64,000 bases of DNA from an uncultured Candidatus Saccharibacteria bacterium (lineage in GTDB: Bacteria > Patescibacteriota > Minisyncoccia > Phycocordibacterales > UBA12445), in contig CAZYTH010000001.1 in NCBI GenBank assembly GCA_964649715.1, positions 9,245-73,244 of the forward strand, written 5' to 3'. The notes below the pieces were generated by a model. That model had not been told where the DNA came from, ran no database searches, and saw only the letters and a program-made list of their open reading frames with translations. Below are positions 5,844 through 18,508 of the stretch, one piece after another (position 1 is the stretch's first letter; the number at the start of each line of letters is the position of its first letter). Both the position numbers and the translations under genes were made by a program.

Positions 5844-6005
5844 ATGAATAGTATCGAAGAATTGAGAGACTACGCGATTGCTGATGAAATCTTAAGAATT
5901 AAAACATTGTCTCGAGAGGAACTTATTAGCGAATTGGTGGCGGTAAAGTCTGAAATGATAGAGTCCTTTACTGACTTGAAAGAAATAAGAAAGTATGGAA
6001 ATTAA
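5844..6005 (+). CDS. Small ORF (53 aa) overlapping the integrase start. Candidate excisionase/RDF-like accessory protein.
   Basis: ATG at 5844, translating MNSIEELRDYAIADEILRIKTL...; it ends 11 nt inside the integrase ORF. It is absent from the supplied ORF track because it is shorter than 60 aa. Confidence 0.25.
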   Translation: MNSIEELRDYAIADEILRIKTLSREELISELVAVKSEMIESFTDLKEIRKYGN

Positions 6006-7674
6006 AAATCAAAAACTTAAATATTTTGTTTATGCCAGGAGGTCAATTGAAAAGAAAGATAAAGAAGAACGAGTGGCTTCTGTTGAGTCTCAACTTTTTG
6101 AAGTTAAGGAGATTGCAAAGAGAGAAAATTTAAAAATTATTGACACTTTCACAGAAACAAAATCAGCTAAAAGACCAGGTCGTCCGTACTTCGGAGAGAT
6201 GATGGACAGAATAGAAAAAGGACAAGCAAATGGAATTTTGTGTTGGAAGATGGATAGACTAGCTCGTAACCCTATCGACGCTGGGAGGATACAGTATCTA
6301 TTACAAACAGGAGTTCTTCAAAACATAAAAGCATCTGACAGGGATTGGTATCCAGACGATAACGTACTTATCTCTTCAGTTGAGTTCGGTGTTTCCAATC
6401 AATACTCAATAGACTTGGCAAAACATATAAAGAGAGGACTCAGAGACCGTTTGAATTCGGGAGTTAGACCGAGTATTGCTCCGATTGGTTATTTGAACAG
6501 TAGATATCATGAAAAAGGCTCGGAAGAAATTCTTGTCGATGAAGAGAGATTTTTCAAAGTTAGAAAATTGTTTGATTTAATGCTTACGGGACAATATTCT
6601 CCACTCCAGTTGGTTGAAATTGCAGATAAAGAATTACAACTTACAACTCGAGGGGTCGGGAGACATCAGAGTAAACCAATGGGAAAGTCGAATATGTATC
6701 GGGTGCTTACTAGTACTTTCTATTATGGAAGTTTTGAGTATCCAGCGGGAAGCGGAAACTGGTATGAGGGGAAACACAAACCTATTATCACCAAGGAAGA
6801 ATATGACAAGGTTCAATTTCTTCTCGGTCGTGGTGGAAGACCAAGACCAAAAACTCATATATTTGCTTATACAGGGCTTATGAGATGTTCCTGCTGTGGG
6901 GCCAGAGTGACCGCAGAGGAGAAATGGAAACATCAAAAGAATGGGAACTCTCATAACTATATTTATTATCATTGTACGGGCAGTGTGTCTCCAGACTGTA
7001 CTGGAAAGTGTGTCGAGGTGAAAGTTTTGGAAAAACAAATTGACGAGTTTCTTTCCAAGATTGAAATTCCTCCAGAGTTTCATGAATGGGCTATTGAGGA
7101 ATTGAAAAAACTTCACGGAAAAGAAAAGGGTGATAGAAATTCATTGATTAATAATCATGAACGTGACTATAAGGATTGTGTTTCTCGTCTTGATACTTTG
7201 GTTGAGCTCCGACTTAACAGAAAGATTTCTGACGAAATGTACGAGAGAAAGGAAAAGGAACTATTGGATAAAAAAAGAGAGTTGAAGCAATTGTTTGATG
7301 GAGATGATAAGAGGGTAGACGATTGGCTCGTTAGACTTGAAAGCACCCTTACTTTTGCAGAGAGAGCAAGAGAAGAATTCAAAAATGGTGATATCACCAA
7401 GAGAAGACAAATCATGACGGCTCTCGGGACTGAACATATTCTTAAAGACAGGGAAATTATTATCCAAACAGAAAAACCACTCCTTATACTTCAAGAAGTG
7501 GTTTCCGAGAACAATAAGTTATTAGATCCATTAGAACCTCCCAAAAGTGTTGGAAACAATGGGCGAATCAAACAAATCTACAACAAAAGTTCATCAATGT
7601 GGAGATGGGGGGAATCGAACCCCCGTGCAAAGGATTTCTCTAAGCTACCAATAGAAGACGTAGTTCGATTTTAA
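5995..7674 (+). CDS. Large serine recombinase (resolvase/invertase N-terminal catalytic domain, recombinase domain, Cys-rich zinc ribbon).
   Basis: YVYARRSIEKKDKEERVASVESQ carries the catalytic serine. A CxxC...C cluster (CSCCGARVT ... HCTGSVSPDCTGKC) follows. The C-terminal ~25 codons overlap the tmRNA 3' end. Confidence 0.85.
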   Translation: MEIKNQKLKYFVYARRSIEKKDKEERVASVESQLFEVKEIAKRENLKIIDTFTETKSAKRPGRPYFGEMMDRIEKGQANGILCWKMDRLARNPIDAGRIQYLLQTGVLQNIKASDRDWYPDDNVLISSVEFGVSNQYSIDLAKHIKRGLRDRLNSGVRPSIAPIGYLNSRYHEKGSEEILVDEERFFKVRKLFDLMLTGQYSPLQLVEIADKELQLTTRGVGRHQSKPMGKSNMYRVLTSTFYYGSFEYPAGSGNWYEGKHKPIITKEEYDKVQFLLGRGGRPRPKTHIFAYTGLMRCSCCGARVTAEEKWKHQKNGNSHNYIYYHCTGSVSPDCTGKCVEVKVLEKQIDEFLSKIEIPPEFHEWAIEELKKLHGKEKGDRNSLINNHERDYKDCVSRLDTLVELRLNRKISDEMYERKEKELLDKKRELKQLFDGDDKRVDDWLVRLESTLTFAERAREEFKNGDITKRRQIMTALGTEHILKDREIIIQTEKPLLILQEVVSENNKLLDPLEPPKSVGNNGRIKQIYNKSSSMWRWGESNPRAKDFSKLPIEDVVRF

Positions 7675-8011
7675 TTTGTATCATAACTTCACCTAAGTGA
7701 GTTAGACACTGTTTCGGAACTATTCTGATAGTAATCGAACAACAGCAGATTGTTCCTATTTCCTTAAATTTTGGAAAATCATCGGAAACATAATTTTCCT
7801 ATCCCGATTTTATGACGCCTGATCGAAATTATCGGAAGTCATCCGACCAAACGGTTACGCTAAAACGTAAACTGGAGCGAAAGGGGATACAATCCTCTTC
7901 GCTACATCTGACAAGTTTGCACTTATCGTTCCTAAGTTTATTTAACGAGCCTCTTAGGGTCCTCGGTCTTCAGTAGATTAGATACGACCAATGTCTAGGC
8001 CGATCATCCCC
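7600..8011 (-). ncRNA. ssrA: tmRNA (ssrA), one-piece, ~412 nt.
   Basis: The minus-strand RNA starts GGGGAUGAUCGG and ends ...CGGGGGUUCGAUUCCCCCCAUCUCCA. The 7-bp acceptor stem GGGGAUG/CAUCUCC includes a G3:U70 pair (Ala identity) and an A discriminator, and the T-arm is GGGGG-UUCGAUU-CCCCC. The gene sits immediately downstream of smpB on the same strand. A candidate tag ORF begins with a GCA resume codon and reads ANLSDVAKRIVSPFAPVYVLA-stop. Confidence 0.7.
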
Positions 8012-8119: not shown

Positions 8120-8566
8120 TTACCTTCCTTCTTTGATTATTCTTTCAATGTTCTTCTTCGCCTCCCTATTTTTTATTGTTTCTCTCTTGTCGAACTCTTT
8201 CTTTCCGCGGGAAACAGCAATTTCAATCTTTATTTTATTCCCTTTATTATACATTGAAAGGGGCACTATTGTCAAACCCTTTTGGTTGGTTGTATTTGAT
8301 AGTTTGAGTATCTCTTTTTTTGTAAGTAATACTCTTCTTAGTCTTGTCGGGTCATAGTCTTTTGGCGCGTTCTTTGGCTGATAAGAGGGAATATCGGCAT
8401 TTATTAGATACGCTTCACCGCCCCGAAGTATCACATAAGATGCATCTAACACACCATGGCCTTCCTTTATGGACTTGACCTCAGTTCCCAAAAGTTCTAT
8501 TCCAGCCTCGTATTTGTCTATCTGTTCGTATTTTAGGCCGTATTTTTTGTTTCGAATAAGAGACAT
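8120..8566 (-). CDS. smpB: SsrA-binding protein SmpB.
   Basis: 148 aa. MSLIRNKKYGLKYEQIDKYEAGIELLGTEVKSIKEG...LDASYV...GEAYL is the canonical SmpB N-terminus. It is adjacent to the tmRNA. Confidence 0.9.
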   Translation of the reverse strand: MSLIRNKKYGLKYEQIDKYEAGIELLGTEVKSIKEGHGVLDASYVILRGGEAYLINADIPSYQPKNAPKDYDPTRLRRVLLTKKEILKLSNTTNQKGLTIVPLSMYNKGNKIKIEIAVSRGKKEFDKRETIKNREAKKNIERIIKEGR

Positions 8567-11759: not shown

Positions 11760-13319
11760 ATGGAAGTACCTAAAAAAAGTGATTATTTAAAAGAAGAGGT
11801 TCAAAATAAACATACGAAACTGTCATTAGACACAAAAAACACTCCTATTTTTGTGGCTATTTTTATTATTTTTGTTGTTTCTTCGATTATGACCTTCTCT
11901 TTATATTGGTTTATTAGCATGAAAAGAGATAAAGAATATGACGATAAATTAAATAAAAATCTTGAGAGAGTAAAAGTTGTTGGGAGTATGAGTGAGGACG
12001 GAGAAGTAATCAATTCAAAAATTGTGTTTCTTTCGCCTCATTGGCAAGAGGAAGTAAAGGTTGGTTCAACTTTAATTATCTCTTGGGAAATTAATATGGA
12101 TGAGCCGGATCAATACCAAATTTTTGTTGGTAATGATAAAACGAAAACAGAAAGGGAAATTTACGACAAGGTTTCTACTCTATCTCTTTTGAATGGAACA
12201 TCAAGAAGTTTCAATTGGAATGTTCCCGATCTTATTAAAGATTTTACAGAGGGGAATTTATTAACCCCAAAACAAATAAAAGATCATTTTTATTTGGTAA
12301 TAAATGCTATAAAAAAAGATCGTGTTGGAGGTGGAGTGATTGCTTCTTCAGATAAGGTTTATTTTTCAGTATTGAAAATGGATATAAATGTAAATTCAGG
12401 TTTGGCTTGGGGTCCATCAGATTCCGCGGGGGATATTATTTTTAATAACGGCAATATCGGTGGCGTAGGCAATCTTCCGACAAATGAGACTGCTTTTATT
12501 TTGGATAAATCCCACATAATTACGGTAATAACAAATTATCATTGGAATGATGGAAGGGGTAGCGCCCCCGGTTTTATAGAGGTAAGAGACGGTTCGGGCA
12601 AAGTATTCGGCAGATGGACTCCAAAGACCAGAAACGGTCAGGGTGCTGTTCTGAATGCTTATTGGGATGTTTATCCTAATATAATTCTTCCTCCTGGACG
12701 ATATCTAGTAATAGATTCTGATCCTGCTACTTGGTCTCAGAATCATTATTCGGGAAATAGTGGTCATTCTTTGGTTAAGGGCTTCCCTCAAGAGTTGCCA
12801 GAGACCTGTTTTATTCTTGGAAGTGAACTTCGTTATCTATCAAAAGATGAAGGATCGTCCGAAGATGTTAGAATTTTACAAGATTTTCTTAAAAACGAAG
12901 GCTATACTAATGATACGCCTGATGGATTTTATGGTCTTTCGACAGTCTCCTTGATAAAAGAATTTCAGAAGAATTTTAATCTTACTCAGACGGGCAATGT
13001 AGATGGAGAAACAAAAGCAAAAATCGAAGAGATGAGTTGTTATAGCAATTATTTAGAGCCGGATGCAATAATAATAAAATCTGACTCAAAATGTATAGAT
13101 ACTGATGGTGGTAGAGATTATTACACAAAAGGAACTGTTTCTGGGGAAGATCAGACTGGTGGTACTGATTATTGCATAGACTCATGGAACGAAATGGGAA
13201 AGATGGAATATTATAATCCACCCAAATTATTGGAATATTATTGTGTTGAGGGTAGTAATCATTACACAATTGAAAAAATTGATTGTCCCAACGGTTGTCT
13301 AGGCGGAGCCTGCATATAA
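11760..13319 (+). CDS. Membrane-anchored extracytoplasmic protein with a putative peptidoglycan-binding domain (PG_binding_1-like).
   Basis: N-terminal TM segment (IFVAIFIIFVVSSIMTF). The segment DVRILQDFLKNEGY...DGFYGLSTVSLIKEFQKNFNLTQTGNVDGETKAKI matches the PGBD consensus. Confidence 0.55.
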   Translation: MEVPKKSDYLKEEVQNKHTKLSLDTKNTPIFVAIFIIFVVSSIMTFSLYWFISMKRDKEYDDKLNKNLERVKVVGSMSEDGEVINSKIVFLSPHWQEEVKVGSTLIISWEINMDEPDQYQIFVGNDKTKTEREIYDKVSTLSLLNGTSRSFNWNVPDLIKDFTEGNLLTPKQIKDHFYLVINAIKKDRVGGGVIASSDKVYFSVLKMDINVNSGLAWGPSDSAGDIIFNNGNIGGVGNLPTNETAFILDKSHIITVITNYHWNDGRGSAPGFIEVRDGSGKVFGRWTPKTRNGQGAVLNAYWDVYPNIILPPGRYLVIDSDPATWSQNHYSGNSGHSLVKGFPQELPETCFILGSELRYLSKDEGSSEDVRILQDFLKNEGYTNDTPDGFYGLSTVSLIKEFQKNFNLTQTGNVDGETKAKIEEMSCYSNYLEPDAIIIKSDSKCIDTDGGRDYYTKGTVSGEDQTGGTDYCIDSWNEMGKMEYYNPPKLLEYYCVEGSNHYTIEKIDCPNGCLGGACI

Positions 13320-13356
13320 TAATTTTAGTAGTAATAAATATTTAAAAAATAATTAT

Positions 13357-14568
13357 ATGAAAAAATATATTTTACTGATTTTATTATTATTGCCGATACT
13401 TTCTTTTGCTGATGGTGGTTTCTTCGTTTATGATCCGCTGGCGGGTCGTTTTGATACACACAAAGAGACAGACCAGACCGTTTACATTAATTACGATAAC
13501 GGTTTTGAAAAAATGATATTAACGGTCGGGGCCGAAGGCGACTTGAAGAGCGATGCTTTTTGGATATTTCCGGTCCCGGCCTCTCCCGAGAAGATTGTAA
13601 TCGATATAATAAAAGATATTCCAAAACTTGATGGGGAAGAAGTTTTCAATGGTGCAAGTAAAAGAATGTCTCAAATGAGAGAAAGTTTTCTTGTGAGAGT
13701 CTTTCCACCTCTTTTAGTCATGCAAGGCGCTTTTAAAATGGACAGTGTGGCATTGCCTCATTATCCTGGTGCCAGTGGAGTGGTTGTTCATGAACGCATA
13801 GAAAAGGAAGGCATGATATCTGAGATAATATCCGCAAAAGACCCCATCTCTCTCGATAACTATTTTATGGGACGAGGTATTAGTGCGAGTAAGGGTTCAA
13901 TACCTGTATTGGGGCTCTATACCGATAAAAATTACTCTTTTGTTGTTTCGTGGATAAATAAGGATTATCAGCAGTCTGCTTCTAAGAGGGGCATATTTGT
14001 AACATTCCCAACTGAATATATTTATTTTCCTTTGGTTCCAACAAGTGTTTATGGAAGTGAGGTTGTACCGGCAGAAATAAAAGTTTTAGGTCATATAACC
14101 CCCGAAATATTCGATAATATTAAGAATTATTCAAAAATCTATTATTATACGGCAGGTAGTTATGGTGGACCATCGGAGTTTTATTCAAGTATTAATAATA
14201 AAAAACTTGATTACACAAGAATAAAACTAGATCCTCCTTCAAAATATTTGACGGAGGATTTGTGGATGGAAAATAAGACGCCGGCAAAAATATTATTGCC
14301 AAGAATGATTGTTAATAATTACAGTATTTTAGAGTTAGTTTTGTTTCTTCTATTATCGGCAGTGTCAAGCATTTTTGCCGGTATAATAGTGTCTCCATCT
14401 TTTAGAAATAAATGGGGCATTGGAAAATTGGCACTTTTGGGGGTTACCAATCTATTTACGGTTTTTGTTTATTTTATTGCATTGATTTCTCTCGGTGAAA
14501 ATTATTCAGAGACAATAGAAAATAGAGATCTTAAAAAATACCCATGGAAATCTCTAAGAAAATATTGA
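13357..14568 (+). CDS. Secreted protein with a signal peptide and a C-terminal membrane anchor; hypothetical.
   Basis: N-terminal MKKYILLILLLLPILSFA; two C-terminal hydrophobic helices. Confidence 0.5.
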   Translation: MKKYILLILLLLPILSFADGGFFVYDPLAGRFDTHKETDQTVYINYDNGFEKMILTVGAEGDLKSDAFWIFPVPASPEKIVIDIIKDIPKLDGEEVFNGASKRMSQMRESFLVRVFPPLLVMQGAFKMDSVALPHYPGASGVVVHERIEKEGMISEIISAKDPISLDNYFMGRGISASKGSIPVLGLYTDKNYSFVVSWINKDYQQSASKRGIFVTFPTEYIYFPLVPTSVYGSEVVPAEIKVLGHITPEIFDNIKNYSKIYYYTAGSYGGPSEFYSSINNKKLDYTRIKLDPPSKYLTEDLWMENKTPAKILLPRMIVNNYSILELVLFLLLSAVSSIFAGIIVSPSFRNKWGIGKLALLGVTNLFTVFVYFIALISLGENYSETIENRDLKKYPWKSLRKY

Positions 14569-14808
14569 TAACAATAATTTTTTCGATAACCTTCGGTGCA
14601 TTGTCGTATTTGATTTTTACTCCTCTTGAAAAATATTTTAGTCATCCTGAACTTTTAGAATATGTTTCTCAAACCGAAAGGCCGTTTCCATCACCATTTG
14701 ATTTTTAGTTTTTTATCTGTTTGTGGTCGATTTTATTTCTGTTAATCGCTTAAGTGGTTTTCTATTTACTTATTTCCTAACTTGAATTATATTGTTATTT
14801 GTTGAAAT

Positions 14809-14881
14809 GCACGTATAGCTCAATTGGTAGAGCAATCGTCTTATACACGATCGGTTCTAGGTTCGAGTCCTAGTACGTGCA
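14809..14881 (+). tRNA. tRNA with a UAU anticodon (tRNA-Ile reading AUA); CCA not encoded.
   Basis: Manual fold: acceptor GCACGTA/TACGTGC, D-arm GCTC/GAGC, anticodon stem ATCGT/ACGAT with loop CTTATAC (anticodon TAT at 14842-14844), T-arm CTAGG-TTCGAGT-CCTAG, discriminator A. Confidence 0.75.
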
Positions 14882-15038
14882 CACTCATGGGAGAGGTTCA
14901 GGGTCCGAGAGGGCTCATATTTCCTCTGCCCATATTAATAAATTTTTATCTTCCATTGATTAAGTTATAGATAATTTCAAGAAAGAAAACTATTTTCTAA
15001 TAATATCTTTTTGAAATAGTTATTTTTGTTGTACAATA

Positions 15039-15926
15039 TTGGTAATTATGGCTGAGGAAGAAAATCAAAATCGAAAAAATATTACAAAAAAGGAGAAGAT
15101 TTCTCCCAGCATCTTTGTTTATAGAATTAATGACGATATCTTTATTCGAGATAACGAGAAAATATTTGAATTTAAAGATATAGAGAACATTGAACAAGTA
15201 ATTTTTTTTATTAATAAATTAACAAAAGGATTAGATATCATCTCTTTTAAAGATGGTTTAGGAAAAAAAGAAAAGGATAATTTTTTACAGATATATGATT
15301 TTTTAAAGAAGAATAATTTTTTGGTTGAGTGTGATTGCGCTGATTGCAAAGAACATGGGGAAATAAGAAAACAGCCGTTAAAAATAAAAATTACATCAAA
15401 AGATAAAAATTTTTCCAGGATTTTAAATAATATTGCCTTAGAAAATGGGTTATCGGAAATTGTAGAGACAGATATGGACGATTATGATTTATTAATATTT
15501 GTTAAAGAAAAAGATACTAACGAAGATGTTCTTAAGAAGATTAATTTAGAAAGTATAAAAAATCATAAGATTTGGCTTTTGGTAGATTTAAGTATCGGTA
15601 ATTATGCATCAATTGGTCCGTTGGTTAGATTAGGCGGAAATCCTTGCTATGAGTGTTTTGTCGAAAGAAAAAAAATAAATAATGATATCCTTACCATTCA
15701 TGAAGACGATAAAAGGGTGTCTATAAAAGAAGGTGTTATTTCTTTCTTGCCATTTCAATATAGTTTTGTTTCATCTATTTTGACCGATTACATTTTAAAT
15801 TTATCAAAAGAAGAGTATGTTTCTTTGGATTTTAATAGTATAATTTACATTGATCTTAACAATTTTAAGATTTGGAAAGAGAGTCTTTTAAAGTACCCAA
15901 ATTGTTCAATTTGTAAAAAATTATAA
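15039..15926 (+). CDS. Putative TOMM cyclodehydratase partner protein (E1-like / ocin-ThiF-like, SagC-type); the assignment is tentative.
   Basis: It lies immediately upstream of the precursor and the YcaO gene. It has CxxC-type motifs (CDCADCKEHG, GGNPCYECF, NCSICKK). No firm family match can be made by eye. Confidence 0.4.
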   Translation: MVIMAEEENQNRKNITKKEKISPSIFVYRINDDIFIRDNEKIFEFKDIENIEQVIFFINKLTKGLDIISFKDGLGKKEKDNFLQIYDFLKKNNFLVECDCADCKEHGEIRKQPLKIKITSKDKNFSRILNNIALENGLSEIVETDMDDYDLLIFVKEKDTNEDVLKKINLESIKNHKIWLLVDLSIGNYASIGPLVRLGGNPCYECFVERKKINNDILTIHEDDKRVSIKEGVISFLPFQYSFVSSILTDYILNLSKEEYVSLDFNSIIYIDLNNFKIWKESLLKYPNCSICKKL

Positions 15927-15940
15927 GTTAAAATATTTAG

Positions 15941-16381
15941 ATGAAAATTTCAAAACTAGATAATAATTTTGAAGACAAAAAGAGTTCTACAATTACTTTA
16001 TATAATACTTGTTGCTGCTGTTGTTGCTGTTGTATCTTGACACCCATAGGGGGGTATCTGGCAGAAAAAGCTGTTCAGCGAAGTTACAATTATAATCATA
16101 ATTTAGCCTTTAACACCTTTATTAATTTTATTTTTCTAATAATTTCTTTGTTGCCCGCTTATTATTGGATAAACGATATGGGATTTCCAGCTCTAACAAT
16201 TTCCGCAGCGATTTACAGCATTCTTTTAGGTATCTTTTCTTTTTATTGGATACCACCAGAAGAATCTTTGGAGGTTAGATTCCAAGCAGTAGCATATCAA
16301 GTCCTTGTTTCTATTGTTTTATATGTTATTTTCTTTTTCGCCTCCTTCCTACTACTTTTCCTATTGCCTCTTTTCGGTTAA
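15941..16381 (+). CDS. TOMM/streptolysin-S-like precursor peptide with a poly-cysteine core (8 contiguous Cys), apparently fused to a ~100-aa hydrophobic membrane domain.
   Basis: MKISKLDNNFEDKKSSTITLYNT-CCCCCCCC-ILTPIGG... The Cys codons at 16010-16033 alternate TGT/TGC. The organisation leader + Cys tract + Gly resembles SagA. The C-terminal 100 aa contain 3-4 predicted TM helices. Confidence 0.55.
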   Translation: MKISKLDNNFEDKKSSTITLYNTCCCCCCCCILTPIGGYLAEKAVQRSYNYNHNLAFNTFINFIFLIISLLPAYYWINDMGFPALTISAAIYSILLGIFSFYWIPPEESLEVRFQAVAYQVLVSIVLYVIFFFASFLLLFLLPLFG

Positions 16382-16390
16382 ATATAAAAA

Positions 16391-17689
16391 GTGATAGATG
16401 TAAATAAACTTATAGGCCGAAGAAATGGCCTCGTAAAAGAGGTTATCGAAACCTATATAGATGAAAACGAACCAAAGATATACTCCTTTGCGGCTCAAAG
16501 GGGGTTTTTAGATTGGGAAAGAGATAAGGGCTATCGTTCTCTTGCTGTTGGTGGAGGAGGAGGTTTAACAAAAGAAGAAGCCCTCTTGAGATCTTGTGGT
16601 GAGGTTGTTGAAAGATACTGCAGTAGTTTTTTGAGAAACGAAGAATTCATAAGAGGTAGTTTTAATTCTTTAAAAAATAAATATAATCTTTTGAATCCTC
16701 AATATTTGACCATTTATTCAAAAAAACAGTACAAACAAGATAATTTTGTATTTAGAGAATTCACCCAAGATTCTCACACAGAATGGGTTTCAGCATATTC
16801 TTATAAAAATAAAAAAAATAAGTATATTCCGGCTTTCTTGGTTTATCTTCCATATAGTGATTTTGAAAAAGGAGGGAAATACTACCCCTCTTCTTCCACT
16901 GGGCTATCATGTGCTCCTTCTTACGAAGAGGCGGTATTGAAAGGACTCTTAGAAATTATTGAAAGAGATGCGTTTTCTATCTCTTGGATAAATCAGCTTT
17001 TCCCACCCAGAATAGATATAAATAATATTGATGAAAAATACGAAGAACTTTTAAGGGTATTTAATTTTGAAAATATTAATTATAATATTTTTGACATAAC
17101 CTCTGATTTTGGGATACCGGTTATTGCAGCTCTTTCTTTTGGCAATTCTTCTTTTGGATATGTAGCATCCTTGGGTCTTTCTTGTTCAACAGATTATTAT
17201 AGGGCAACAAAGAAAGCCTTGATAGAAAATGCACAAGGAAGAGTATCTGTCGCTTTTCAAAGAAAAAGAGAACCGGACAAAAAGTATAGAGATGATTTTA
17301 AAGATGTCGTTAATTTTGACGATCATTCGTATATATATTCTACAGATCCGACACTAAAAGATAAGCTAAGTTTTTTGAGGGGCTCTAATAATGAAATAAA
17401 ACCTAATAAGTTAGACAAAGGCAAAAACCTAGATGAAATTATTGAAATATTCTTAAAAAAGGGTTTTGATGTGTATGCTAAAGATCTTACAACCCCTGAC
17501 ATAGAGGACGTTGGACTAAAAGTTGTTAGGGTGTTTGTTCCTGGTATGGTTTATTTACACGGCACACATAGTAACCCTTTTTTGGGAAGTGGTAGAATGT
17601 ATAAGCCATCAGATATTTTTAAATGGTGTAATATAAAAACAAGTAGAGAGGAGGATATTTCTTCTTTTCCACCGCATCTTTTAGGCTAA
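16391..17689 (+). CDS. YcaO-domain cyclodehydratase (TOMM D protein).
   Basis: SLAVGGGGGLTKEEALLRSCGEVVERY matches the YcaO ATP-binding motif (GxGxTxxEAxxSxxxExxER). A second YcaO motif is SSSTGLSCAPSYEEAVLKGLLEIIERDAF. Confidence 0.85.
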   Translation: MIDVNKLIGRRNGLVKEVIETYIDENEPKIYSFAAQRGFLDWERDKGYRSLAVGGGGGLTKEEALLRSCGEVVERYCSSFLRNEEFIRGSFNSLKNKYNLLNPQYLTIYSKKQYKQDNFVFREFTQDSHTEWVSAYSYKNKKNKYIPAFLVYLPYSDFEKGGKYYPSSSTGLSCAPSYEEAVLKGLLEIIERDAFSISWINQLFPPRIDINNIDEKYEELLRVFNFENINYNIFDITSDFGIPVIAALSFGNSSFGYVASLGLSCSTDYYRATKKALIENAQGRVSVAFQRKREPDKKYRDDFKDVVNFDDHSYIYSTDPTLKDKLSFLRGSNNEIKPNKLDKGKNLDEIIEIFLKKGFDVYAKDLTTPDIEDVGLKVVRVFVPGMVYLHGTHSNPFLGSGRMYKPSDIFKWCNIKTSREEDISSFPPHLLG

Positions 17690-17690
17690 A

Positions 17691-18482
17691 ATGAGGGAAT
17701 TCAAAGATATATTTAAAAAAGATTTTAACAACAAGAATGAATTTTCTCTTGCTGATTTTTTTAATGAGAATACAGAACTAAGCAAAAAAGATATTTCATC
17801 TCATTTCCAAAGAATAGCAACGTATTACGATTTTAAAAAAGAGAACTTAAAAATAGCTGAAGATAAATTTCCTTTTGCTAAAAAGATTTCACTTACAAAT
17901 ATTAAGACAAAATTATTTTCATCGTTTAAAAAAGTTTTAAATAACAGAAGATCAAGAAGGATTTTTTCTGATAAAAAAATTTCTCTTTCTGAAATATCGA
18001 GTCTTTTAAAACTTAGTTATGGAAAAATAGAAGTAGATGGTCATCCTTTTTCAACAATTCCTTCCGCCGGAGCTATTTTCCCTCTACACCTATATTTGTT
18101 AAGTGAAAATACAGAACTAACTAAGGGGGTTTATCACTATCATTATGTGAACAATTATCTTAATCAGGTACTTGTTGATATTGGAATAAAAGAAAAAGTT
18201 GAAGATTCTGTTGTGTTAAAAAATTTAGATTCGTTCCCTTCGTTATTGTTTGTTATAACAGCAGACCTTAGAGATATCTGTACGAAATACGGAGACAGAG
18301 GATATCGCTTTTCTCTAATCGAAAGTGGGCATTTAGGACAAAACCTTCTTTTGTCAGCTGAATATTATAATATGAATGCAGTGGCCCTTGGTGGTTTTTT
18401 TGATAAAGAATTGGCTAGTCTAATTAAGGTCAACTATGAGTTTGAGAAACCTTTATATGTGATAGCAATGGGTAAGAAATAA
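17691..18482 (+). CDS. SagB-type (McbC-like) FMN-dependent dehydrogenase (TOMM B protein).
   Basis: Nitroreductase-fold signatures NNRRSRRIF and PSAGAIFPLHLYLL, plus Y-rich YHYHYV. Its start overlaps the YcaO stop. Confidence 0.8.
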   Translation: MREFKDIFKKDFNNKNEFSLADFFNENTELSKKDISSHFQRIATYYDFKKENLKIAEDKFPFAKKISLTNIKTKLFSSFKKVLNNRRSRRIFSDKKISLSEISSLLKLSYGKIEVDGHPFSTIPSAGAIFPLHLYLLSENTELTKGVYHYHYVNNYLNQVLVDIGIKEKVEDSVVLKNLDSFPSLLFVITADLRDICTKYGDRGYRFSLIESGHLGQNLLLSAEYYNMNAVALGGFFDKELASLIKVNYEFEKPLYVIAMGKK

Positions 18483-18508
18483 ATTACCGTTAAATAATAT
18501 TTTTTATT

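Follow-up and report, generated by a model that had tools for sequence, protein, structure and literature searches.

The window (the whole stretch of DNA that was analysed, 64,000 nucleotides) carries a four-gene operon whose second gene, gene A, encodes a 146-aa membrane protein with eight contiguous cysteines close to its N-terminus. With a probability of about 0.6, this protein was judged to be a substrate of the azole synthetase encoded beside it, that is, a TOMM/LAP precursor whose leader and core are native to an integral membrane protein. The TOMM/LAP azole synthetase itself is known. A membrane-embedded TOMM/LAP precursor would be new, and no poly-Cys or membrane-fused YcaO substrate was found described in the literature searched, which was mostly without subscription journals. 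The features of the operon are given below in the coordinates of the window.

15039..15926, + strand: gene C, 295 aa, E1-like partner or presumed leader-binding protein of the cyclodehydratase
15941..16381, + strand: gene A, 146 aa, poly-Cys membrane protein, second gene of the operon
15941..16009, + strand: leader-like N-terminus of gene A, MKISKLDNNFEDKKSSTITLYNT, aa 1-23, with a conserved start and motif
16010..16033, + strand: Cys tract of gene A, C24-C31, eight Cys codons, presumed core
16034..16066, + strand: hinge of gene A, ILTPIGGYLAE, aa 32-42, L33 and P35 invariant, G37 and E42 at least 90% conserved
16103..16375, + strand: three-TM membrane domain of gene A, aa 55-145, with a conserved N in TM1, W103 and S135
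16391..17689, + strand: gene D, 432 aa, YcaO cyclodehydratase of the SagD/TOMM type
17691..18482, + strand: gene B, 263 aa, SagB-type FMN dehydrogenase

Translation of 15941-16381 (+) gave MKISKLDNNFEDKKSSTITLYNT-CCCCCCCC-ILTPIGGYLAEK..., in exact agreement with the initial annotation, in which an eight-Cys product with its cysteine codons at 16010-16033 had been described. The eight codons are TGT TGC TGC TGT TGT TGC TGT TGT; they are mixed and form neither a homopolymer nor a perfect tandem repeat, so that the earlier statement that the tract is no homopolymer holds while the statement that the codons alternate does not, there being no strict alternation. The ORF had also been said to run on into TM helices. 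It does so for 115 aa downstream of the tract, with hydrophobic segments by Kyte-Doolittle analysis and helices in the AlphaFold2 model. Together with T23 the eight cysteines make nine heterocyclisable residues in the window protein, and these are preceded by Asn. Gene A was the sole Cys/Ser/Thr-rich ORF (at least 20 aa) in 14400-18700, and the pattern C5-[ILV]-L-x-P-x-G, written as degenerate DNA, had one match in the window against 0.00 expected (100 shuffles). Pfam and NCBIfam gave no match for the window protein. Across the 24 members of the A family Pfam gave no consistent match and none to models of CPBP/Rce1-type proteases, and the idea that gene A encodes a CPBP-type self-protease was rejected. 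A "faint" precomputed match to PF27786, the streptolysin S precursor family, was found on one relative (P0133).

The four genes lie on the + strand in the order C-A-D-B, separated by gaps of 14, 9 and 1 nt, and span about 3.5 kb. Gene D matched PF02624 at 2e-74 and TIGR03604 with 279.9 bits (cut-off 219.25), its nearest solved structures being TruD (1e-25) and LynD. Gene B matched PF00881, as well as TIGR03605 with 103.8 bits (cut-off 78.4); McbC, CyaGox and a SagB-type dehydrogenase are its solved relatives, and its residues 199-200 are a Lys-Tyr pair. The match of gene C to TIGR03882 (TOMM precursor leader peptide-binding protein) was sub-threshold, at 31.3 bits against a cut-off of 36.9. 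A profile built from 10 orthologs of gene C matched the E1-like domains of TruD (2.9e-11), LynD, MusD and MccB, with values from 3e-11 to 8e-9, and the cysteines of a conserved CxxC...CxxC pattern (C203, C206, C289 and C292) were invariant among the orthologs. Residues 25-100 of gene C were modelled as three beta strands followed by helices, with pLDDT 60-74, in a poor single-sequence AlphaFold2 model (overall pLDDT 43). The beta3-alpha pattern in this low-confidence model is only suggestive of an RRE in the N-terminus of the protein. The location of gene A in a genuine TOMM/LAP enzyme cluster is supported by the scores of D and B, which both lie above curated thresholds. A Pfam search within about 10 kb of the operon in the window yielded no ABC transporter, CPBP protease or peptidase. 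Domains of SagE (CPBP protease), SagF and the SagGHI ABC exporter were likewise missing from some 10 kb around the operon and from the called genes of related loci, and no protease or exporter conserved with the cassette was found in the flanks of those loci. A promoter and terminator scan gave no clear difference from shuffled sequences.

Relatives of gene A were sought exhaustively with phmmer among 1.84 billion representative proteins. The search returned 24 clusters besides the query, of which 23 are real relatives; the remaining one (P0124) was rejected as a spurious eukaryote-like repeat protein. The real relatives are 142-199 aa long and have a common layout of leader, tract, hinge, basic loop and three TM helices. 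The N-terminus of about 22 aa has an MKI-like start, a conserved Asn and conserved hydrophobic positions, and ends in (T/V)(L/F)Y-x-G, for a consensus of MKIxPLxNxL...TLYxG. The tract, mostly Cys, comprises 5-10 residues from the first to the last Cys (12 in the paralog L012b) and is followed by the hinge [ILV][LF]xPxG, by a Lys/Arg-rich loop and by the three TM helices. In the same search the membrane domain was never found without the Cys tract; at the sensitivity of phmmer it is no detectable fusion of an independent module. The family is real, conserved and absent from Pfam and NCBIfam. One relative comes from a Patescibacteria MAG. The family extends beyond low-GC CPR bacteria, since the GC content of its loci runs from 29% up to 64%.

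Tract and membrane domain occur in one continuous frame in 23 related clusters, at 15 distinct loci and in four independent data sources. In the initial annotation a frameshift had been suspected of merging two genes. This suspicion was dropped, since the frame is unbroken and the MKI start conserved in all 23 relatives and at every related locus. An assembly artefact, named at the same time as something that would undo the Cys tract, is contradicted by the recurrence of the feature in independent assemblies (NCBI, JGI, ENA and Logan); from this recurrence and the comparison with shuffled sequences, gene A was taken to be neither a product of chance nor one of assembly. At one locus (L005) the gene caller had overlooked the N-terminus of the A gene, which was recovered by a six-frame scan. 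A word-indexed homolog search with gene A matched itself alone, and with the family alignment, where poly-Cys candidates crowded the search, it returned 4 proteins. A locus search with the pattern CCCCCC[IVL]L gave at least three true A loci among the matches listed. Scanning of metagenome contigs with a DNA pattern gave at least four such loci among at least 120 matches, most of those listed being unrelated poly-Cys stretches. The pattern scan of viral contigs gave 3 matches, none belonging to the A family and none near TOMM enzymes, and a phage origin was rejected.

HMMs were built for A, C, D and B, and all fetched loci were scanned with them. The A gene stood beside C, D and/or B at 12 distinct related loci (29-64% GC), which answers positively the earlier suggestion that Cys-tract homologs be looked for next to YcaO genes elsewhere. 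The order C-A-D-B was found in the window and in L001, L002, L005, L006, L007, L012 (63.5% GC) and L136, with two A genes in L002, L007 and L012. Four loci (L004, L008, L061 and L127) have the order D-B-C-A, and a distant member (L066) has A-C-D-x-B. Every locus with enough flank that was reached through YcaO homologs at 48-62% identity contained one or two A genes in a six-frame scan; for the eight supporting loci that were arrived at via YcaO, the adjacency is partly a matter of how they were found. Among the matches listed for searches seeded from A itself, TOMM enzymes adjoin A in six of nine distinct loci (L011/L128, L012, L061, L066, L127 and L136). Tandem A paralogs within one operon lie at 4949-5973 of L002, 5030-5988 of L007 and about 2190-3158 of L012. 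The flanking genes vary between loci, and for this reason the cassette appears to be mobile between genomic contexts.

Homologs unrelated to YcaO loci had been named beforehand as evidence against the association. Such copies are a minority: three orphan A genes (L013, L134 and L135) have no adjoining TOMM genes, and one of these has the cluster elsewhere in its genome. L013 shares a MAG with L012, whose contig carries the full cluster, and is a distal extra copy. In L134 (P0145) and L135 (P0144), on contigs of 2.7 kb and 1.8 kb, A lies upstream of groES and trmB, with a Ser/Thr kinase gene upstream of A in L134. No TOMM enzyme was seen on these short contigs, and the two may represent a subfamily with a different or distal partner. 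Both are divergent members, with the tracts SSSSTSSSC (L134, 1233-1730) and CCCCTSSSC (L135, 60-659). At 13071-13583 (-) of L066 a 170-aa C8 protein, MKINNKRDDFSHSKQVKLNVG-CCCCCCCC-LFWPGG..., with hydrophobic segments downstream of its tract, precedes genes for C, YcaO and SagB. It scored only 38 bits with the family HMM, and going by this locus, membrane-fused poly-Cys substrates may form a class larger than the 23 clusters.

The residues that interrupt the tract in relatives were 18 Ser, 2 Thr, 2 Gly and 1 Ala, with no others. Ser and Thr thus make up 20 of 23, and Arg, Tyr, Phe and Trp, though equally one mutation away from Cys, were absent. An exchange of Cys for Ser or Thr is tolerated by an azole-forming core and not by a thiolate metal site or an acylation site, and on this account the tract reads as a core. 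Gly stands directly before the tract in 15 of 24 members. Mean pairwise identity over the family was 29% for the leader, 63% for the tract, 52% for the hinge and 18-28% for the TM helices. Within one operon, paralogs shared 57-86% identity in the leader and 17-55% in the membrane domain, a pattern that would fit an N-terminus needing recognition by shared enzymes. The cluster contains an adjacent gene for an N-terminal leader followed by a Cys/Ser/Thr-rich core, namely A itself (aa 1-23 and C24-C31). Taken together, the exchange pattern, the leader-like N-terminus and the place in the operon make it quite probable that A is a substrate of the azole synthetase.

The AlphaFold2 model of gene A, computed from a 24-sequence alignment, had a mean pLDDT of 82.9 and a pTM of 0.69. 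Helices were modelled at 28-49, 55-80, 82-103 and 110-145, and residues 1-27 were disordered (pLDDT about 50). The hinge lies inside helix 28-49 (pLDDT 85-91), a fourth helix docked against the bundle. Polar residues conserved in the membrane domain are the N in TM1, W103, S135 and R and E around TM3, and loop 2 contains paired Cys in some members of the family. A Foldseek search of the PDB returned no solved fold of significant similarity (best E-value 0.32). Mean K+R counts in the family were 4.6 for the N-terminus, 3.5 for loop 1, 1.0 for loop 2 and 2.5 for loop 3, and the N-terminus had an average net charge of +3.2. By the positive-inside rule, the best arrangement would have three TM helices, preceded by a cytoplasmic stretch of ~55 residues and followed by a C-terminus on the outer side; leader and core would then lie within reach of cytoplasmic enzymes. 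A four-TM, N-out topology is still conceivable, given the packing of helix 28-49 into the bundle in the AlphaFold2 model and the stretch of residues 20-41, which is hydrophobic by Kyte-Doolittle analysis and long enough to span the bilayer.

If gene A is such a precursor, its maturation can be outlined from these observations. The C-terminal three-TM domain would insert in the membrane and leave the basic N-terminal ~55 residues in the cytoplasm, as the positive-inside rule predicts. Protein C, being related to the E1-like/RRE domains of TruD, LynD and MccB, would bind the conserved leader. As expected for members of their families, the YcaO protein (D) would use ATP to cyclodehydrate consecutive cysteines to thiazolines, and the SagB dehydrogenase (B) would oxidise these to thiazoles. 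As many as eight thiazoles in a row would result, a rigid and hydrophobic segment directly ahead of the LxPxG hinge, held at the membrane by the three-TM domain. Because the conserved cassette comprises neither a protease nor an exporter, the membrane-tethered form would be the functional product or a long-lived intermediate. The chance that the product of A stays anchored in the membrane was put at slightly under even. More tentative is the proposal that the mature product is an integral membrane protein permanently carrying up to eight contiguous thiazoles at the membrane face.

Gene A might also encode a substrate whose membrane domain is a mere carrier or immunity module, the latter raised in the initial annotation. 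Housekeeping proteases would then cleave at two sites, behind the leader at the Gly that precedes the tract and at the LxPxG hinge, releasing a short lipophilic, streptolysin S-like polythiazole that attacks other cells. Such a course is rather unlikely, although the layout is that of a cytolysin (a leader of ~23 aa, Gly, an uninterrupted heterocyclisable stretch and a C-terminal extension that lacks such residues), the invariant L33 and P35 with the conserved G37 form a potential processing site, and tandem paralogs are typical of toxin precursors. The weak conservation of the membrane domain (18-28% mean identity) is also what a mere carrier might have; yet the domain never stands alone, keeps specific polar residues and is modelled with a confident four-helix packing that includes the hinge helix. 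The predicted topology would leave the tract on the cytoplasmic side, the cassette has no conserved protease or exporter, and the A family has no CPBP/Rce1 match. A tethered product was favoured over a released peptide because of the polar residues and confident fold of the membrane domain and the cassette's lack of a protease or exporter. Substrate status itself would fall if A were an accessory or unrelated membrane protein whose cysteines bind metal or Fe-S or are lipidated, the true precursor being encoded elsewhere. Strings of Cys near membranes are acylated in eukaryotes, which lends this idea a precedent. Cys-rich membrane proteins handle metal in other RiPP-like systems, the MerC-bufferin chimaeras (PMC12452194), and of the three orphan copies of A found at a distance from YcaO, two share a conserved groES-trmB neighbourhood. 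The idea is nevertheless improbable: replacement of Cys by Ser or Thr, up to SSSSTSSSC, would abolish thiolate metal binding or S-acylation and keeps heterocyclisability, the disordered N-terminus is conserved in the manner of a leader, the operon has no other candidate precursor ORF, and the place of A between C and D is conserved across genomes of 29-64% GC.

Two further readings were rejected. Polycysteine short ORFs of mycobacteria have been described as Cys-responsive attenuators in a preprint (bioRxiv 10.1101/834739), and with this precedent of polycysteine leader ORFs the run in gene A could be imagined as a cysteine-sensing translational attenuator of the downstream genes. Gene A is no short leader ORF, having 146 aa with a conserved folded membrane domain; in the D-B-C-A loci it comes last and has no enzyme gene behind it to attenuate; none of the downstream genes belongs to cysteine metabolism; and Ser-rich variants exist. 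These points leave the attenuator a very slim chance. Slimmer still is the chance that a frameshift or misassembly fused a precursor of ~45 aa with the membrane protein gene downstream of it; the sole point in favour is that known TOMM precursors are short. This reading was discarded on the single ORF in 23 clusters and 15 loci, in which homologs keep leader, tract, hinge and TM domain together, and on the mixed Cys codons, which are not prone to slippage.

Other features of the window were recorded. The C-A-D-B operon is closely preceded by a tRNA-Ile gene with the unusual anticodon TAT (14809-14882, +). Converging on the 3' end of the operon is a gene (18509-19801, -) for a large serine recombinase with Resolvase, Recombinase and Zn_ribbon_recom domains. 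The presence of these two genes around the operon suggests a mobile island; no direct repeats linking the tRNA-Ile gene and the recombinase gene were found. Another large serine recombinase is encoded by an ORF that overlaps the tmRNA gene at its end, and smpB adjoins (5995-7674, +; 7597-8011, -; 8120-8566, -); this recombinase may belong to an element integrated at the tmRNA gene. The region 19800-20313, roughly 500 bp without a long ORF, has a GC content of about 0.40 against 0.30-0.35 in its surroundings and had no Rfam match at the gathering threshold, the Rfam scan having found tmRNA and tRNA only. Large secreted proteins with C-terminal PG_binding_1 domains are encoded at 11760-13319 and 20313-21887, one of them also with IPT/TIG repeats. 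Neighbouring proteins of 400-540 aa, at 13357-14568, 21941-23164 and 23491-25110, had no Pfam match.

Should the tethered thiazole product be confirmed, its thiazole run would be a built-in, rigid, conjugated prosthetic group that is ribosomally templated. It would be the first case of YcaO azole chemistry making a functional membrane protein instead of a diffusible natural product, and this chemistry would be located in ultra-small, uncultured bacteria. A fully processed tract would form a contiguous octathiazole, an unusually long linear polyazole, on a protein. Membrane perturbation at host contact, metal handling and electron handling are possible roles of a tethered polythiazole, all of them speculative. 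Such a product would bear on the purpose of the LAP clusters that are widespread in CPR bacteria and on the chemical fate of the contiguous Cys run in streptolysin S-type toxins; to our knowledge, the structure of streptolysin S is still unsolved. Genome-mining tools for RiPPs seek short precursor peptides, and a family with leader and core embedded in a membrane protein would escape them.

Among known systems the layout is most like the streptolysin S class (SagA with SagBCD; ClosA, LlsA), and the likeness to SagA pointed out in the initial annotation was upheld for the succession of leader and heterocyclisable tract, as was its remark that a membrane domain of roughly 100 aa sets this protein apart from known precursors. 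Shared with this class are a leader of ~23 aa, usually a Gly, a run of Cys/Ser/Thr and an extension without heterocyclisable residues, as well as a separate C protein, a YcaO protein of the SagD type and a SagB dehydrogenase. Cytolysin cores consist of Gly and then 10 or more contiguous heterocyclisable residues, with a variable C-terminal part (Cox et al. 2015, PMC4603692). The window protein has Asn and nine such residues, and most relatives have Gly and 6-9; the run of the A family consists almost wholly of Cys and, at 5-10 residues (12 in one paralog), is shorter than the 10 or more of the cytolysins. Where the streptolysin S type has a tail of ~20 aa, A has a domain of 110-140 aa with three TM helices. 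The A clusters have no SagE-like CPBP protease, SagF or SagGHI ABC exporter, the FXXXB leader motif is not evident in the A family, and the hosts are Patescibacteria-like and other uncultured bacteria. The usual LAP precursor is under 100 aa, has its leader released and is exported, unlike A with its 146 aa, three TM helices and a cluster without a conserved protease or exporter. In CPR bacteria 110 LAP clusters have been reported from 93 genomes, with YcaO and an adjacent nitroreductase-type dehydrogenase (Sharrar et al. 2020, PMC7298704). The present operon has the same pair of enzymes, whereas the example given in that work has an 84-aa soluble-type precursor and a peptidase.

TruD and LynD, which act with PatE-type precursors, are the closest solved homologs of C and D. 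Their E1-like/RRE domain recognises a leader, and there is a recognition sequence after the core. C and D are fused in these enzymes and separate here, and PatE-type precursors are soluble cassettes of small size, served by dedicated proteases and a macrocyclase that have no counterpart here. The closest precedent in concept for RiPP enzymes that modify integral membrane proteins lies in the MNIO superfamily, whose modified membrane substrates include MerC-bufferin chimaeras and TIGR04222 proteins (PMC12452194). In those systems RiPP-type enzymes act on Cys-rich low-complexity segments of integral membrane proteins, and some of the precursor genes lie away from the enzyme genes, as do some A genes. 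The MNIO systems differ in their 5-thiooxazole chemistry, their C-terminal periplasmic Cys-rich segment and their Sec signal peptides; the segment in A stands at the N-terminus, probably on the cytoplasmic side, and goes with YcaO and SagB.
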